From a virus (Duplodnaviria > Heunggongvirae > Uroviricota > Caudoviricetes): 5,621 nt of DNA. Every line of letters starts with the position of its first letter. Positions within the stretch are counted from its first letter, which is position 1. Under the pieces are notes generated by a model that was not told the DNA's origin, did no database searches, and was given only the letters and a program-made list of their open reading frames with translations. The stretch lies in IMG/VR virus record IMGVR_UViG_2563366946_000003. One strand, 5' to 3'. Below, piece by piece: positions 1 to 5,621 of this stretch. The position numbers were made by a program, and so were the translations under genes.

Positions 1-77
1 GAGTCTTGAGTCTTGAGTCTTGAGTCTTGAGTCTTGAGTCTTGAGTCTTGAGTCTTGAGTCTTGAGTCTTGAGTCTT
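1..77. repeat. Perfect tandem heptanucleotide repeat (GAGTCTT)x11, beginning at the window edge so the array may be longer
   Basis: Direct reading: 11 uninterrupted GAGTCTT units at 1-77, followed by AAC. The plus strand has TGA in every frame; the minus strand (AAGACTC)n has no stop in any frame. Confidence 0.95.
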
Positions 78-235: not shown

Positions 236-1207
236 TTAGTGCTTCCCTTCTATTAAGTCTAACCTAGCTTTTATTCTTTCTATTTCTCTGCGCTGCCATG
301 CTGCCTCGATATAGAATAAGAGATCAGGTCTGACCCCCCATCTAGATCCTGCTGGCGTTATTTCAACGCGCTCAATGATGTCTTCCATTACCATCACTGG
401 ATTATCATCCTCATCAACAATGATGCTCCCGTCATTATCAGTCAGCGGCATTTCCCTTTGGCCAGTAATGACGTCATCATATACTGCGGGATAATCGTCA
501 TAGCAAAGAAAGGCATAGCGGCATGTTGTGCTTTCTTCTTCCATGAGTCCGTGAGAAATAAGAACATCACGAAGTTGCTGCGCGATTACACCATGATGTA
601 TCCTCGCCCCTTCTTCCCCCTTTATAGCGACAGCGTTCAGCCATTTATAAGCGATATACCTGACGTCACCCCAGGCATCCAGCAATGTTTCGTCAGGAGA
701 GACCGGCTCTGTCTTTAATGTTCCGTCACTGGTAGCCACAGGATTGGAGCCAAGATAAACTATCGAGAACCTGTTTCCCGGACCACCAAGAGCATTTACA
801 TTATCAAGATAAGGTTTAACATCTCCGTTCTCAAAAAGATGTTCGAGTGCGTTATATACCGCGCGACGTGGAGTACTGCTTCTGGAACCATGCAACGTTA
901 TCATTGCACCATCTGCTGAAGACGTTGTTTCACCGCCGCTAACGATTAATCTCTGAGCGGTAACATCATCAGACGGTACTTTCTTCGCAATAATGGCGTA
1001 ATTACCCTCAAGTTTGACTTCCGCGCGAACTTGTCCTGATGTACCTGCATGGACAGTCAGTGACTGGACGGCAACATCATCTGTGAAATCAACGGGTACA
1101 GGAACCGTCCTCACGCCTGACGTCGACATAAAAGTAGGAAGCGTTCTGTTAGGAGTGGCTCCGTAGACAAAATCCCTTGAAACAAATTCTTCCTGTTTAA
1201 TTTTCAC
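236..1207 (-). CDS. Phage tail fiber/tailspike-like protein, C-terminal fragment with S74-type intramolecular chaperone (autoproteolytic) domain; 5' end probably truncated by IS629
   Basis: 323-aa ORF with TAA stop at 238-236. The C-terminal half carries the pattern I associate with S74 chaperone domains of tail fibers and endosialidases (ATSDGTLKT ... LDAWGDVRYIAYKW ... ARIHHGVIAQQLRDVL). The annotated start is a GTG only 4 bp from the IS629 left end at 1212, so the true N-terminus is most likely missing. Confidence 0.6.
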   Translation of the reverse strand: MKIKQEEFVSRDFVYGATPNRTLPTFMSTSGVRTVPVPVDFTDDVAVQSLTVHAGTSGQVRAEVKLEGNYAIIAKKVPSDDVTAQRLIVSGGETTSSADGAMITLHGSRSSTPRRAVYNALEHLFENGDVKPYLDNVNALGGPGNRFSIVYLGSNPVATSDGTLKTEPVSPDETLLDAWGDVRYIAYKWLNAVAIKGEEGARIHHGVIAQQLRDVLISHGLMEEESTTCRYAFLCYDDYPAVYDDVITGQREMPLTDNDGSIIVDEDDNPVMVMEDIIERVEITPAGSRWGVRPDLLFYIEAAWQRREIERIKARLDLIEGKH

Positions 1208-1211
1208 CCTG

Positions 1212-1236
1212 TGAACCGCCCCGGGAATCCTGGAGA
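1212..1236. repeat. IS629 left terminal inverted repeat (IRL)
   Basis: TGAACCGCCCCGGGAATCCTGGAGA matches the reverse complement of 2497-2521 at 23 of 25 positions. Confidence 0.8.
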
Positions 1237-1265
1237 CTAAACTTCCTGAGAAAGAGGTAAACAGG

Positions 1266-1592
1266 ATGACTAAAAATACTCGTTTTTCCCCCGAAGTCCG
1301 TCAACGGGCAGTCCGTATGGTTCTGGAAAGTCAGAGCGAATATGACTCACAATGGGCGACAATTTGTTCCATTGCTCCAAAGATTGGCTGTACGCCGGAG
1401 ACTCTGCGTGTCTGGGTTCGCCAGCATGAGCGGGATACCGGGGGCGGTGATGGAGGGCTCACCACCGCTGAACGTCAGCGTCTGAAAGAGCTGGAACGTG
1501 AAAAGCGTGAACTGCGCCGCAGTAACGATATCCTTCGCCAGGCTTCCGCTTATTTTGCGAAGGCGGAGTTCGACCGCCTCTGGAAAAAATGA
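1266..1592 (+). CDS. IS629 OrfA (IS3-family transposase N-terminal HTH/leucine-zipper subunit)
   Basis: 108 aa, [50 protein letters not shown]..., ATG 54 bp inside IRL. The heptad-like [24 protein letters not shown] stretch is typical of IS3 OrfA. Confidence 0.93.
1581..1592 (+). other. Probable programmed -1 ribosomal frameshift window (A6 run) joining OrfA and OrfB into the OrfAB transposase
   Basis: TGG AAA AAA TGA at the OrfA end; the OrfB ATG (1589-1591) is in the -1 frame and overlaps the A-run. IS3-family elements characteristically make OrfAB this way. Confidence 0.5.
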
Positions 1593-2479
1593 TGCCACTG
1601 CTGGATAAGCTGCGTGAGCAGTACGGGGTCGGACCGCTATGCAGCGAACTGCATATTGCCCCGTCAACGTATTACCACTGTCAGCAACAGCGACATCATC
1701 CGGATAAACGCAGTGCCCGTGCGCAGCGCGATGACTGGCTGAAGAAAGAGATACAGCGCGTATACGATGAAAATCACAAGGTATACGGTGTGCGTAAAGT
1801 CTGGCGTCAGTTGTTACGGGAAGGTATCAGAGTGGCCAGATGCACTGTGGCACGTCTCATGGCGGTTATGGGACTTGCCGGTGTTCTCCGGGGTAAAAAG
1901 GTCCGTACGACCATCAGCCGGAAAGCCGTTGCCGCAGGCGACCGCGTAAACCGTCAGTTCGTGGCAGAACGACCTGACCAGCTGTGGGTGGCTGATTTTA
2001 CTTACGTCAGCACATGGCGGGGCTTCGTCTATGTGGCGTTCATCATTGATGTGTTTGCCGGATACATCGTGGGGTGGCGGGTCTCATCGTCCATGGAAAC
2101 GACATTCGTGCTGGATGCACTGGAGCAGGCGTTATGGGCCCGTCGACCGTCCGGCACGGTCCATCACAGTGATAAAGGTTCTCAGTATGTATCGCTGGCC
2201 TACACACAGCGGCTTAAGGAAGCCGGATTACTGGCATCAACAGGAAGTACAGGCGACTCGTATGACAACGCGATGGCGGAGAGCATCAATGGTCTTTACA
2301 AAGCGGAGGTAATACACCGTAAGAGCTGGAAAAACCGTGCAGAAGTGGAACTGGCCACACTCACGTGGGTGGACTGGTATAACAATCGACGATTGCTGGA
2401 AAGGCTGGGCCATACTCCTCCGGCAGAAGCAGAAAAAGCTTATTATGCTTCCATCGGAAACGATGATCTGGCAGCCTGA
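1589..2479 (+). CDS. IS629 OrfB (IS3-family transposase catalytic DDE domain)
   Basis: 296 aa in the -1 frame relative to OrfA. DDE-type core visible (WVADFTYV ... HHSDKGSQY ... [11 protein letters not shown]). Confidence 0.93.
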
Positions 2480-2496
2480 GTTCACAGATAAAACAC

Positions 2497-2521
2497 TCTC
2501 CAGGAAACCCGGGGCGGTTCA
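2497..2521. repeat. IS629 right terminal inverted repeat (IRR)
   Basis: Reverse complement reads TGAACCGCCCCGGGTTTCCTGGAGA, matching IRL at 23 of 25 positions. Confidence 0.8.
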
Positions 2522-2776
2522 TCTAAAATTGCTATACTATTCATGTTGGTTTTTCTCCACGGATTTACCGACAACCGAAGCCCTGACTGTTCCAGCAGTT
2601 GGGGCTTCACTGTTTTGATTTCTTTGCCGCATCAAGCATCACTTCTGAAAACGTGCGCTTGCCACTGAATACTCTTTCTCTTCTCAATTTTTCGTTCGTG
2701 CCAAATGATTCGCCATGAACAAAATTTGGTCTTAAAATGGTAATCGCAATCTCTTTGACTACTGCATCCAAGCGAA

Positions 2777-2929
2777 TCACACCGTTACCCCCTCTCTCTT
2801 CAGGCTGTCTATCAGGCGCTTGATAACCTCTGAGTTAAACGACCTGCACTCTTCCTTTGCCCTGCTACCGATAGCATCCTTTAACGACTGCGGCATCCTT
2901 ACCAAAATCTTACTTATTTCTTTCTCCAT
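2777..2929 (-). CDS. Arc-like ribbon-helix-helix (Arc/MetJ superfamily) transcriptional repressor, 50 aa
   Basis: MEKEISKILVRMPQSLKDAIGSRAKEECRSFNSEVIKRLIDSLKREGVTV; the RSFNSEV...SLKREG region resembles P22 Arc (GRSVNSEIYQRVMESFKKEG, from memory). I chose the ATG at 2929 because GGAGGG sits 4 nt upstream; the track's longer ORF (to 2965) starts at a TTG with no RBS. Confidence 0.7.
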   Translation of the reverse strand: MEKEISKILVRMPQSLKDAIGSRAKEECRSFNSEVIKRLIDSLKREGVTV

Positions 2930-2965
2930 GTTACCCTCCACGCAAACAACTCTTTTCGAATACAA

Positions 2966-2994
2966 AAGATAGCAAAGTGAGTATATCTAGTCAA
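2966..2994 (-). promoter_or_regulatory. Putative sigma70-like promoter for the Arc-like gene
   Basis: On the minus strand, TTGACT (plus 2994-2989), a 17-nt spacer, then TATCTT (plus 2971-2966). The -10 overlaps the left operator arm. Pattern match only. Confidence 0.25.
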
Positions 2995-3020
2995 AATTTT
3001 TTTGCATACACTTTGCTATC
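2968..3020. promoter_or_regulatory. Candidate operator: 12-bp perfect inverted repeat GATAGCAAAGTG (2968-2979) / CACTTTGCTATC (3009-3020), 29-bp spacer, between the divergent RHH genes
   Basis: Exact reverse-complement arms read directly from the sequence. They lie between the two RHH start codons and overlap both putative -10 elements. Confidence 0.45.
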
Positions 3021-3022
3021 AA
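3014..3022 (+). promoter_or_regulatory. Putative extended -10 element (TGcTATCAA) for the Mnt-like/peptidase operon
   Basis: TG-n-TATCAA about 22 nt upstream of the ATG at 3044; overlaps the right operator arm. No convincing -35 found. Confidence 0.2.
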
Positions 3023-3043
3023 ATTGAATACCAAAGGTGTTAT

Positions 3044-3292
3044 ATGGCAAAGGGTGTGTCAATTTCTCCAACTACGGTAAGAATCCCTGAATCTTTACGC
3101 GAGGCTCTTGCTGTCAGAGCATCAAAAAATGGTCGCTCTGTTAACTCCGAGATCGTCATGATTTTGCAAGCCGCGATTGATGAAGATAGGTCGCCAAAGT
3201 CAGTTGAGTCATTTGCTCAGCAAGAAGCTGATAAATTCAAAGAGGCGCTACTTGAGACGCTAAAGACCATGTATGCTAAGGATGAAAAATAA
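3044..3292 (+). CDS. Mnt-like ribbon-helix-helix (Arc/MetJ superfamily) repressor, 82 aa
   Basis: MAKGVSISPTTVRIPESLREALAVRASKNGRSVNSEIVMILQAAIDEDR...LKTMYAKDEK resembles P22 Mnt in length, in the NGRS(V/M)NSE motif and in the C-terminal ...LK(D/T)(L/M)Y(K/A)K tail (from memory). AGGTG lies 6 nt upstream of the ATG at 3044; the track's 14-codon N-terminal extension has no RBS. Confidence 0.75.
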   Translation: MAKGVSISPTTVRIPESLREALAVRASKNGRSVNSEIVMILQAAIDEDRSPKSVESFAQQEADKFKEALLETLKTMYAKDEK

Positions 3293-3828
3293 TGCTGCAC
3301 ACAATTCATTTCTTATGCCCTGTTAACACTGCCACTGTTGGGCAACTTCAGAACCACTGTCTCACCGCATTATCTCAAGGCGCAACTGAATTAAATATCC
3401 ATATATCAAGTCAGGGAGGGGAAACTGCTGCTGGCTTTACTGCGTATAACTTTCTTAAGTCACTCCCTGTTACCGTTAGAACTCACAACATAAGCAATGT
3501 TGAATCCATAGCTAATATCGTTTTCCTGGCTGGCTCAGAACGTTTCGCAAACCCATTATCAAGATTCCTGTTACATCCTCTATTATGGTGCTTTGCCTCC
3601 CCAGCCGCCGACCATGCCAGATTGAGAGAGTACGGGAAATGCCTCGATAACGATCTTGATCGCTTCGTTGAGACGTTCAATATCGACATCGGAACCCATA
3701 TTAGGTGGGCATCCCTGATAGCAGACTCGACCATTTTGGATGCTAACAAGGCTCTTGAGCATGGCATAATTAATTCCATAAAAACTGCAAGGCTGGCATC
3801 CAATCAGGCAAACTGGTGGGTTGTTTGA
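3292..3828 (+). CDS. Stand-alone ClpP-fold (S14-like) serine peptidase, 178 aa, translationally coupled to the Mnt-like gene
   Basis: ISSQGGETAAGFTAYNFL aligns with the ClpP [20 protein letters not shown] motif. By manual alignment the ClpP catalytic Ser and His fall on S72 (NVESIAN) and H95 (SRFLLHP), and the C-terminal ALEHGIINSI resembles ClpP AVEYGLVDSI. Its ATG overlaps the Mnt-like TAA (TAATG at 3290-3294). Confidence 0.75.
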   Translation: MLHTIHFLCPVNTATVGQLQNHCLTALSQGATELNIHISSQGGETAAGFTAYNFLKSLPVTVRTHNISNVESIANIVFLAGSERFANPLSRFLLHPLLWCFASPAADHARLREYGKCLDNDLDRFVETFNIDIGTHIRWASLIADSTILDANKALEHGIINSIKTARLASNQANWWVV

Positions 3829-3852
3829 TGGGTAAATCATGATTACTCCTTA

Positions 3853-3879
3853 TAAAAAACCCACCTGACGGTGGGTTTA
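3853..3879. terminator. Bidirectional rho-independent terminator between the convergent peptidase and YafO-like genes
   Basis: ACCCACC (3859-3865), loop TGAC, GGTGGGT (3870-3876), with A6 upstream and TTT downstream. On the minus strand the hairpin is followed by TTTTTTATA. Confidence 0.6.
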
Positions 3880-4326
3880 GTCAAACATAGTGTTTCTAAA
3901 GTCTCTCGCATACCCTGCTAACACTCTCATTCTATTATGATTGTTAGCAGACATGTGAGCTACAGGATGAAAAAGAGCAATCAATGAATACCTGTTCTCA
4001 TCAAAAAGATTTTGTGCATAAACGAGAGCGGTATTGGATGTTTTATGCCACTGCAACTTTTGCGGTGTGCTGATATCTGTGCCATTTTTTATTGGCTCAA
4101 ATTTATTTTCACCAATTGCTAAATGAAGGTGCATAAGGCCTGCATCTTCAATATCAGGAGGTCGATGATAAGAGGTGTCTCTGCCAAAATAGCTGGGCAA
4201 CGTTCCCGTAGACTTGTAGATGATAAAATCATCTACAAGTGTTTGTTTTAAATCAGGAAACTCAACAAAAACCGGGGAGAAAAAATAGTCAAAACTATCC
4301 TGATTATATTCCACGGTTACTTGCAT
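3877..4326 (-). CDS. YafO-family toxin homologue (type II TA ribosome-dependent mRNA interferase family), 149 aa
   Basis: DDFIIYKSTGTLPSYFGRDTSYH ... MHLHLAIGEN ... ALVYAQNLFDENRYSLIALFHP ... NNHNRM aligns well by eye with E. coli YafO as I recall it (ADFISYKRDGVLPDTFGRDALYD ... AHIHLANEN ... HLVYCQGAFDEQAWLLIAILKP ... DNNQMH). GAGGT RBS lies 5 nt upstream of the ATG. Confidence 0.7.
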   Translation of the reverse strand: MQVTVEYNQDSFDYFFSPVFVEFPDLKQTLVDDFIIYKSTGTLPSYFGRDTSYHRPPDIEDAGLMHLHLAIGENKFEPIKNGTDISTPQKLQWHKTSNTALVYAQNLFDENRYSLIALFHPVAHMSANNHNRMRVLAGYARDFRNTMFD

Positions 4327-4334
4327 GTTTTACC

Positions 4335-4901
4335 TCAGTGGAAGTTACCAGAGTGAAACACACGAGTCCCGTGCTCAGCAAGCGCACGCAAACCAGCCAT
4401 ATCTACGGAACTATCAAAAACAACCGGAACACATGAGCGTTGTTTAATAAGACTATTCAGGTTGGTTACGGCAGATCTGGCATCAGCAACAACGATATAG
4501 ATATCTCTTGCGATCTCTTTAAAATCAGCAGAAGCTTCTTTGAATACCGATTTCATTGCCCCTTCAAGTCCTCTCAATTGATGCTCTATCAATCGAGACT
4601 TTTCTGGTTCAATGATAGACAACACATTGTCTACATTCTCATCGGTAGCGTTTGCAAGAACACGATAAGCGTATTTCAGCATTCGAGACAATTCTTTAAT
4701 CGAAGACACCGCCTCATGAAGCTCATCATTAGCCCGTTCACTGCTGAATGAGGATTGATGGTAAGCGTGCTGAACGTTATCAGTAACAACCACCTCACAA
4801 CTGAACGCAGAAGCTTGCTGTAATAGCAAACCTATTGCGACTCCAGCTTTGGCAGCGTTCAAGCTAAACATTTCATCAATCCCATTAGTCTCATTGCTCA
4901 T
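4335..4901 (-). CDS. Hypothetical 188-aa protein encoded immediately upstream of, and co-operonic with, the YafO-like toxin; family not recognised
   Basis: Start placed at ATG 4901 (MSNETNGIDEMF...) because a perfect AAGGAGG lies 5 nt upstream; the track's TTG start at 4931 lies upstream of that RBS. The TGA stop (4337-4335) is 8 nt from the toxin ATG and overlaps its RBS. Not Phd/YefM/YafN-like in size or sequence. Confidence 0.6.
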   Translation of the reverse strand: MSNETNGIDEMFSLNAAKAGVAIGLLLQQASAFSCEVVVTDNVQHAYHQSSFSSERANDELHEAVSSIKELSRMLKYAYRVLANATDENVDNVLSIIEPEKSRLIEHQLRGLEGAMKSVFKEASADFKEIARDIYIVVADARSAVTNLNSLIKQRSCVPVVFDSSVDMAGLRALAEHGTRVFHSGNFH

Positions 4902-5076: not shown

Positions 5077-5427
5077 GTGAATGCTCAGTCTGTCATCATG
5101 GTTTTCCTTGGGCTGATTGTCGCAAAACTATATCCAGACTGGTGGAAAGGGGCATTAGCTACTGTCGCCATCTATTTGCTTTTATCCATCGTTAAGCGAT
5201 CACTCGCTGAGACCGTAAATCAAGCAAAACGTTTCTCATTTAAGAGTTTAATAAACTATGTTACTGGGCTTATTTTTTGCCTTTCAATTCTGATCGCTTC
5301 GGCTTTTTTGCCCGTATCAATAGCTAATTTTTTTGGCGCACCATATGAGGTAGGTTATCTATTCTCTGTTTCCTGTCTTGCCATTGCTCTTCTTTACCTG
5401 TGGACGAGATCAAAGAATAAAAATTAG
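5077..5427 (+). CDS. Small integral membrane protein, 116 aa, about 4 predicted TM helices; function unknown
   Basis: GTG start at 5077 preceded by AAGGAGG (5064-5070). Four hydrophobic stretches: SVIMVFLGLIVAKLY, ALATVAIYLLLSIV, LINYVTGLIFCLSILIASAFL, GYLFSVSCLAIALLYLW. Confidence 0.6.
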   Translation: MNAQSVIMVFLGLIVAKLYPDWWKGALATVAIYLLLSIVKRSLAETVNQAKRFSFKSLINYVTGLIFCLSILIASAFLPVSIANFFGAPYEVGYLFSVSCLAIALLYLWTRSKNKN

Positions 5428-5551: not shown

Positions 5552-5621
5552 TGAACCGCCCCGGGAATCCTGGAGACTAAACTTCCTGAGAAAGAGGTAA
5601 ACAGGATGACTAAAAATACTC
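5552..5621 (+). mobile_element. Second IS629 copy, left end only (continues beyond the window), same orientation as the first
   Basis: 5552-5621 is identical to 1212-1281 (IRL plus the start of OrfA). Confidence 0.9.
5606..5621 (+). CDS. IS629 OrfA, 5' partial (second copy)
   Basis: ATGACTAAAAATACTC, identical to the start of OrfA at 1266. Confidence 0.85.

Follow-up and report, generated by a model that had tools for sequence, protein, structure and literature searches.

A truncated ClpP paralogue of the PpClpP1 type travels as a passenger behind mnt in the immunity-I region of a CUS-3-like prophage

The immunity-I (immI) region of phage P22 is textbook material, with the gene order 16> <sieA <orf59a <mnt, then arc> ant> 9>, in which a single transcript covers mnt and orf59a and stops at the mnt terminator. 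P22-type prophages express Mnt as their maintenance repressor, and the interval between gene 16 and gene 9, which varies among the P22-like phages, was named the 'ant moron' by Villafane et al. (2008), who listed a six-gene CUS-3/UTI-1/APEC-1 type (PMC2629481). Here we describe a gene for a 178-aa ClpP-like protein that follows mnt in a prophage fragment of 5,621 nucleotides (IMG/VR record IMGVR_UViG_2563366946_000003); this whole stretch is referred to as the window. The window comes from the right end of a CUS-3-like prophage of the P22 family, now defective, in K1 Escherichia coli and corresponds to the gene 16-to-tailspike ant moron interval. The ClpP-like gene behind mnt is not the new regulatory system that an earlier, sequence-only reading had proposed; it is cargo, and it belongs to a family with a solved and characterised member.

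That member is PpClpP1 of Pseudomonas plecoglossicida, described in 2026 (PLoS Pathog, PMC12900304). It is the shortest ClpP characterised and has no N-terminal region; its triad is Ser73-His96-Pro151 instead of Ser-His-Asp, and its activity requires the Ser and the His while the third residue is dispensable. PpClpP1 forms a homotetradecamer with an axial pore of 42.7 Å, is a weak peptidase alone (13-fold below its canonical paralogue) that degrades neither casein nor GFP-ssrA, and does not bind ClpX. Together with canonical ClpP it assembles into a heterotetradecamer that is more active and still functional with ClpX, and deletion of the chromosomal homologue in Pseudomonas impairs growth (PMC12900304). 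Accessory ClpP subunits of mixed tetradecamers generally have weak or no activity alone and do not themselves bind the ATPase (in part PMC12900304). Searches of the literature on prophage-encoded ClpP-like genes and on ClpP-like defence returned nothing beyond the PpClpP1 paper, and the paper on phage E212 does not discuss the ClpP-like gene. That this truncated ClpP family is widespread prophage cargo, tied to the mnt transcript in P22-type phages, appears to be unreported in the searchable literature.

Positions 2522-3878 of the window are a true P22-type immI core (ant', sar, orf57, arc and mnt) plus one passenger gene. The homology, which the sequence-only reading had proposed as an immI-like arrangement, follows from the presence of the sar antisense RNA and from the Ant proteins of relatives; in one of these (L001) the full-length Ant begins MNSIAILE and shares 84% identity with P22 Ant. 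The two divergent ribbon-helix-helix (RHH) repressors recognised in that reading, one Arc-like (50 aa) and one Mnt-like (82 aa), both match the Pfam Arc family; identity to the P22 proteins is 39% for Arc and 36% for Mnt, in the latter case over 74 residues that include the C-terminal helix (TLK..Y.K segment); a Pectobacterium orthologue of Mnt matches PF11423 (Repressor_Mnt). Arc and Mnt would be the usual repressors of the ant promoter. The repeat region between their genes, proposed as operators, does contain a perfect 12-bp inverted repeat spanning 2968-3020, a length reached in only 3 of 5000 shuffles of the 114-bp spacer, and these remain candidate operators. Sister alleles have other palindromes at the same spot, including authentic P22 Omnt/Oarc sequences, and the operators differ from one repressor allele to the next; conservation of the 12-bp long-range repeat among them is not strict, and the repeats match neither Arc nor Mnt unambiguously. 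Villafane et al. reported in 2008 that CUS-3-type morons apparently lack arc (PMC2629481). The 50-aa Arc gene is clearly there, contrary to that comparison, and is now annotated by the Prokaryotic Genome Annotation Pipeline (PGAP).

The ClpP-like gene had been read as coupled to mnt and as standing in the place of the antirepressor. The coupling is seen directly in the sequence, where the mnt stop and the ClpP-like ATG overlap as TAATG at 3290-3294. The substitution did not hold up: sar and the first 23 nt of ant remain on the arc side, cut by an insertion sequence (IS) of the IS629 type, and ant has thus been destroyed in the window, not replaced. Because the P22 map places orf59a behind mnt, and because sar and ant lie on the arc side, the ClpP-like gene occupies the orf59a slot, on the maintenance side of the region and not on the ant side. 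The suggestion that it encodes a protease-type antirepressor is therefore unlikely, since the gene lies on the mnt transcript that serves lysogenic maintenance in P22.

The 178-aa product was correctly taken for a minimal ClpP-fold protein. It matches PF00574 at 44 bits (cutoff 20), its AlphaFold2 single-chain model has a predicted local distance difference test (pLDDT) value of 90, and Foldseek aligns the model to E. coli, S. aureus and other ClpPs with template modelling (TM) scores of 0.75-0.80. Ser72 and His95, the catalytic pair named in the sequence-only reading, align by hhalign to ClpP Ser97 and His122 and do not vary among 21 homologues with identities down to 32%. The third member of the triad is not conserved, however: ClpP Asp171 has its counterpart in Ser146, where the family has Ala or Ser, and the protein does not have a Ser-His-Asp triad. 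It starts about 25 residues later than ClpP, and the N-terminal axial region is missing, in agreement with the predicted loss of a docking region. The ClpX and acyldepsipeptide (ADEP) pocket of E. coli ClpP, which we take to be formed by Y60, Y62, F82, I90, M92, F112, L114 and L189, corresponds by hhalign to N35, H37, S57, H65, I67, F85, N87 and K164; six of these eight positions are polar in the 178-aa protein, and some are invariant in the family.

The closest characterised relative is clear from three comparisons. A search with a family profile finds the PpClpP1 structure (PDB 9UXT) at 3.5e-51, compared with 2.8e-13 for the best canonical ClpP; Foldseek gives this structure a TM score of 0.90 to the 178-aa model, compared with at most 0.80 for canonical ClpPs; and BLASTP aligns the two proteins end to end at 40% identity. 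The earlier statement that the pairing did not resemble a described system thus needs amending for the peptidase, whose family PpClpP1 represents (PMC12900304). Database names are less helpful. The protein fails all NCBIfam ClpP models (19-40 bits against cutoffs of 228-361) and scores slightly higher, 49 bits (5e-13), with NF045542 (Clp_rel_HeadMat), for which the cutoff is 120. It is called 'ATP-dependent Clp protease proteolytic subunit' in RefSeq (WP_000903306.1), an over-call given scores below the NCBIfam cutoffs, and 'head maturation protease' in phage phiv205-1 (QGF19911.1); both public names are probably wrong.

The neighbourhood of the gene was surveyed in 104 loci, taken from contigs encoding homologues, from an IMG/VR scan (the best 80 of 117 viral contigs with a ClpP-like gene) and from annotated genomes. 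Loci were scored with marker proteins and an iterated RHH profile, and an RHH neighbour was sought within 1.5 kb. Two patterns are seen. Where the copies are at least 79% identical, in P22-like prophages of E. coli and Pectobacterium, the stop codon of a Mnt-type gene overlaps the ClpP-like start in 39 of 40 loci; the fortieth ends at a contig edge, such that all 39 informative loci have the coupling. The Mnt proteins upstream range from 36% to 100% identical to that of the window, the control regions are of at least six allele types, and the Ant alleles beside the gene vary from 40% to 100% identity, while the ClpP-like protein is 97-100% identical. The lambda-like phage PhiR12_5 carries the ant-arc / mnt-clpP block intact between tail genes L and K. 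In two IMG/VR loci (L037 and L039) the ClpP-like gene is preceded by a tandem set of two or three Mnt-like genes that differ in allele, which may represent stacked immunity specificities.

The copies that are at most 75% identical present a different picture, with an RHH gene in none of 64 loci and neither Ant nor immI nearby. These are lone inserts, transcribed opposite to the flanking operons, and they sit at five kinds of prophage module junction. Klebsiella, E. coli, Serratia and many viral contigs have the copy at the lysis/terminase junction, and Proteus has it between N and erf; in Pantoea and P. putida it lies within Mu-like tail clusters or at their end, and in Chromobacterium between lysis and tail-fibre genes. 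In loci L006, L013, L018, L060, L063, L081, L100 and L102 a conserved block lies about 130 nt upstream of the start codon and contains, in order, a TGAAA-N3-TTTCA palindrome, TTGAAT, an AT-rich -10-like stretch, a hairpin (a short CCC..GGG stem with compensatory changes), the ribosome-binding region ACCTCTGGAGAA and the ATG; a second upstream type, TGATCAAAYGTCAGGATTAC ... GGAATATTCTTAAGGA, is present in copies within Mu-like tail clusters. Judged by their sequence, the lone copies with their own promoter-like block look like self-contained morons and show the features by which morons are recognised. The window copy, unlike these, belongs to the mnt transcript and is followed by a strong hairpin terminator. 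Predictions of the hairpin stem on the two strands have z-scores of -3.1 and -3.4, and the stem is followed by six U residues on the minus-strand transcript but only UUU on the plus-strand transcript.

The linkage to RHH regulators, whose absence among homologues the sequence-only reading had named as a refuting result, is thus real in the immI loci but absent from every clade at or below 75% identity; the contrast between 39 of 40 and 0 of 64 loci shows that it is a property of one clade in immI modules and not a trait of the family. The gene is nearly invariant while the upstream Mnt and operators vary, and its relatives are lone inserts elsewhere; for these reasons it is cargo, or a passenger.

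The family is not exclusively viral, and has both chromosomal and phage-borne branches. In species-representative genomes, orthologues of PpClpP1 (75-93% identical) are present in about 55 species of the P. putida group at a syntenic chromosomal locus, with a low-affinity iron permease, a DUF72 protein and a CheB/CheR hybrid kinase as neighbours, and we therefore rejected the idea that PpClpP1 itself is prophage cargo. A Massilia clade is also chromosomal. A further Pseudomonas clade (P0111, 49% identical to PpClpP1) lies at the end of the tail module of a Mu-like prophage. We note that the start of the PpClpP1 orthologue overlaps the end of the iron permease gene (PF04120) in locus L115 (5540-6546) and in about 30 other Pseudomonas loci; this pairing, in 31 of 54 species loci, suggests an operon, and the PpClpP1 paper does not discuss it (PMC12900304).

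The most likely scenario, in which we have moderate confidence taken as a whole, is that the passenger of immI encodes an accessory subunit of the PpClpP1 type which works through host ClpP in the lysogen. On this view the gene is no part of the immI switch; a phage-borne representative of the truncated, Asp-less ClpP paralogues, it forms the second cistron of the mnt transcript and would be made whenever Mnt is made; as mnt is expressed in P22 lysogens, the passenger should be made in lysogens as well. By homology to PpClpP1, the protein would form ClpP-type heptameric rings with a wide open pore and would have weak peptidase activity dependent on Ser72 and His95. It would itself be unable to dock ClpX or ClpA, and its ring would stack on a host ClpP ring to give a mixed tetradecamer with changed ClpXP/ClpAP output. 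Fitness, lysogeny stability and competition with other phages are candidates for the benefit to the lysogen or the phage. A more ambitious version, which we offer as speculation and think unlikely in its entirety, is that temperate phages of the Enterobacterales supply, in the lysogen, a gate-less, ATPase-blind ClpP ring that caps host ClpP and re-programs ClpXP/ClpAP, whereby lysogeny is stabilised (for example by clearing Ant-type antirepressors) or superinfecting phages are killed or blocked. If true, phages would encode a 'protease-subunit' module of a hitherto undescribed kind, and the strict mnt-clpP operon would be the wiring of the P22 family to the lysogenic state.

Several observations weigh against an accessory subunit made in the lysogen. 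Expression in lysogens is deduced from the biology of P22 mnt and from the TAATG coupling, and a consensus scan of the control region found no convincing Pmnt-type promoter. The oligomeric state, the pairing with E. coli ClpP and the activity are extrapolated from a Pseudomonas protein that is 40% identical, the gene for which is chromosomal and not in a prophage. The best PHROG match of the 178-aa protein is to phrog_94, head maturation protease (7e-21), and descent from a phage protease that acts alone is possible. In strains E10 and FY26 an IS disrupts the ClpP-like gene or parts it from mnt, from which it follows that the gene is dispensable at least there. Finally, the strict mnt-clpP linkage over at least six alleles and in PhiR12_5 could reflect a closer tie to immI than the word passenger implies.

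Of the alternatives, the one that survives best, though we consider it unlikely, is a stand-alone effector of anti-phage defence or superinfection exclusion: a self-compartmentalised peptidase, possibly derived from a ClpP-type prohead protease and needing no host ClpP, whose targets, to be degraded or wrongly processed, would be proteins of incoming phages, for example scaffolds or capsid precursors. Heads of the P22 type have no maturation protease, and their capsids mature without proteolysis. A P22-type carrier would for this reason be immune to an activity directed at proheads. The gene is also found in slots that are classic for cargo and defence (on the orf59a/sieA side of immI, in the N/erf interval and at the lysis/terminase junction), and sieB lies in the N/erf interval of P22 and lambda. 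The orientation of the lone copies against the flanking operons and their own promoter-like region, the YafO-family toxin pair that adjoins the gene in the window, and the matches to phrog_94 and Clp_rel_HeadMat noted above are consistent with the same idea. Many carriers, however, are lambdoid or Mu-like phages whose own heads may use proteases (there is an S49 protease in L018), the chromosomal orthologues in the P. putida group and Massilia look like housekeeping genes, and PpClpP1 alone is a weak peptidase that spares casein and GFP-ssrA. A PADLOC scan of six cargo proteins gave no meaningful match, and no paper in the literature search ties such a gene to defence.

An effector of the lysogeny switch tied to immI is more doubtful still. 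This modified form of the antirepressor or switch hypothesis in the sequence-only reading has the peptidase, alone or with host ClpP, removing Ant that is leaky or comes from a superinfecting phage, or another switch protein, and so reinforcing the maintenance function of Mnt. The unbroken overlap of Mnt stop and ClpP-like start through at least six alleles, those with P22 operators included, the intact block in the tail gene cluster of PhiR12_5, and the position of the gene on the maintenance transcript and not the ant transcript are what such an effector would predict. Against this, the 64 loci of other clades without RHH, Ant or immI nearby show that the function of the family does not require immI, and the gene stays 100% identical in prophages that have lost ant, that of the window among them. 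The variability of Ant alongside a nearly invariant peptidase also argues against a co-evolving pair of enzyme and substrate.

Two further explanations are effectively excluded. The sequence-only reading had suggested that the pair forms a toxin-antitoxin or abortive-infection module, the RHH protein serving as antitoxin or regulator and the peptidase as toxin, and the translational coupling with the RHH gene first is the usual type II layout; but the RHH protein is an orthologue of Mnt, which has a known target of its own, and it belongs to a complete immI setting, no clade at 75% identity or below has an RHH partner, lone copies are common and evidently tolerated, an IS parts the two genes in strain E10, deletion of the chromosomal homologue in Pseudomonas impairs growth where loss of a toxin should relieve it, and the PADLOC scan gave no match. 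Least probable of all is that the gene is the phage's own ClpP-type prohead (head-maturation) protease, which the phiv205-1 annotation and the PHROG and NCBIfam similarities would favour, since it is not in the head module but between gp16 and the tailspike gene and on the opposite strand, falls well short of the Clp_rel_HeadMat cutoff, recurs in unrelated positions in phages with different head types, and is carried by P22-type phages with capsids that mature without proteolysis.

The prophage context of the window can be read from intact relatives in ATCC 11775, E10 and SCU-116, which have tRNA-Arg, intS, neuO, tailspike, ant, orf57 and arc to the left, mnt, the ClpP-like gene, then the yafO-like gene and orf188, then orf109 on the other side of arc, and beyond these gp16, gp20 and gp7, onward to the P22-type coat gene. 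The immI block is therefore located between the ejection-protein gene 16 and the tailspike gene 9, as in the P22-like late operon. Coordinates of the features are collected in the table. At the left end, GAGTCTT is the reverse complement of AAGACTC, the phase-variation repeat (VNTR, a tandem repeat whose copy number varies) at the 5' end of neuO; this repeat underlies phase variation of the CUS-3 prophage O-acetyltransferase gene (PMC3046976). The small orf57, which has a start codon overlapping the arc stop by 4 nt, is annotated in relatives and has no P22 counterpart.

Table. Features of the 5,621-nucleotide window, in order of position. ORF, open reading frame.
Feature	Position	Strand	Remarks
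GAGTCTT array	1-77		11 perfect copies; starts before the window edge, so 11 is the number inside the window
neuO ATG	82-80	-	
Endosialidase tailspike, C-terminal part	236-1207	-	PF12219 2.4e-78; Peptidase_S74
IS629-type IS3-family element	1212-2521	+	Right end truncates ant, left end truncates tailspike gene
IS629 transposase ORFs	1266-1592 and 1589-2479	+	
ALIL frameshift pseudoknot in IS629	1547-1663		Rfam
ant remnant	2522-2544	-	First 23 nt, encodes MNSIAIL; ORF list shows fusion to IS sequence
sar antisense RNA of immI	2545-2611	+	Rfam RF00262, 83.9 bits (gathering 43), full-length model match
Terminator-like hairpin at sar	2577-2608		
orf57, between arc and sar/ant	2607-2780	-	57 aa; phrog_17642 1.3e-43
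arc, Arc-type RHH repressor	2777-2929	-	50 aa; Pfam Arc 5.1e-12; 39% identical to P22 Arc
Control region of the divergent genes, with candidate operators	2930-3043		114 bp between arc and mnt
Perfect 12-bp inverted repeat	2968-2979 / 3009-3020		Coordinates of the two arms
Pant-like promoter	2994-2966	-	TTGACT-17-TATCTT; overlaps left arm of inverted repeat
Near-palindrome	3012-3023		TTTGCTATCAAA
mnt, Mnt-type RHH repressor	3044-3292	+	82 aa, C-terminal oligomerisation helix; Pfam Arc 9.5e-11
ClpP-like gene	3292-3828	+	178 aa, N-terminally truncated ClpP paralogue of PpClpP1 type; coupled to mnt by TAATG
Bidirectional terminator hairpin	3857-3878		9-bp GC-rich stem, between convergent ClpP-like and yafO-like genes
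YafO-family toxin gene	3877-4326	-	PF13957 3.4e-22
188-aa ORF (orf188)	4335-4901	-	phrog_8416
Membrane ORF	5098-5427	+	116 aa, small, multi-pass; convergent with gp16
Second IS629-type element	5552-5621		Begins within 3' end of gp16

The damage to the prophage is the work of IS629-type elements, which truncate the tailspike gene, ant and gp16 in the window. The first has the terminal sequence TGAACCGCCCCGGG, as read from the window, and links the C-terminal part of the tailspike gene with the initial 23 nt of ant; likeness to the intact prophages starts again at 2522, straight after the element. The two elements have the same orientation and flank a 3-kb block, ant'-sar-orf57-arc-mnt-clpP-yafO-orf188-orf109-gp16', in a layout like that of a composite transposon. 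IS positions in the same region differ across other genomes of extraintestinal pathogenic E. coli (ExPEC), which suggests repeated independent decay.

Among the other cargo genes, the 188-aa ORF that precedes the YafO-family gene belongs to no Pfam family and is not a YafN-type antitoxin, and the two may form an unusual toxin-antitoxin or defence pair. The pair is variable cargo that is absent from other P22-like loci with the ClpP-like gene; a link between that gene and the pair was rejected, as the YafO marker is found only in window-type loci. The membrane ORF is at the position of P22 sieA but has no family match and no similarity to P22 SieA, and that identity was rejected on this ground; by its position alone it is a candidate superinfection-exclusion gene.

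The ClpP-like gene is present in 176 of 5426 complete E. coli genomes (about 3%), including ST95/K1 ExPEC lineages with CUS-3-like prophages, and further carriers are prophages of Klebsiella, Proteus, Serratia, Pantoea, Pectobacterium and Pseudomonas. If the protein does act as an accessory subunit, many prophages carry a component that plugs into the central ClpP protease of the host. Antitoxin turnover, SOS recovery, RpoS and several phage proteins are under the control of ClpXP and ClpAP, and a modifier of these proteases expressed in the lysogen could therefore affect prophage stability, stress tolerance, virulence or phage resistance. The survey also provides a context for the 2026 work on PpClpP1, which is seen to belong to a family with branches on chromosomes and in phages.

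Compared with P22 immI, the locus has the same position between gene 16 and the tailspike gene, the same divergent mnt and arc, sar, and a small second cistron behind mnt. It differs in that its Mnt and Arc are only 36-39% identical to those of P22, its operators are different, an extra orf57 separates arc from sar, a ClpP paralogue replaces orf59a behind mnt, sieA is absent, and ant has been deleted by IS629.

Similar comparisons can be made for the ClpP-like protein. With the ClpP-type (MEROPS S14) head-maturation proteases it shares ClpP-core similarity, carriage by phages and the lack of ATPase-docking elements, but its gene is outside the head module, has no scaffold or capsid gene fused to it or beside it, stays under the family cutoff and occurs in phages whose heads do without a protease. 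The ClpP fold is common to this protein and to the Listeria ClpP1/2, Mycobacterium ClpP1P2 and P. aeruginosa ClpP1/ClpP2 paralogues, PDB entries for which are among the Foldseek matches; those paralogues are chromosomal and retain a Ser-His-Asp/Asn triad together with the greater part of the N-terminal region, whereas the 178-aa protein is phage cargo, has no such N-terminus and has Ser as its third residue. PpClpP1 differs in having Pro151 where the 178-aa protein has Ser146, and in its chromosomal locus, as opposed to a prophage-carried, mnt-coupled gene. The two are nonetheless alike in length (178 and 183 aa), in the missing N-terminal axial region, in keeping the Ser and His with a non-acidic third position, and in the common motifs THN and DHxR and a W-rich C-terminal tail.

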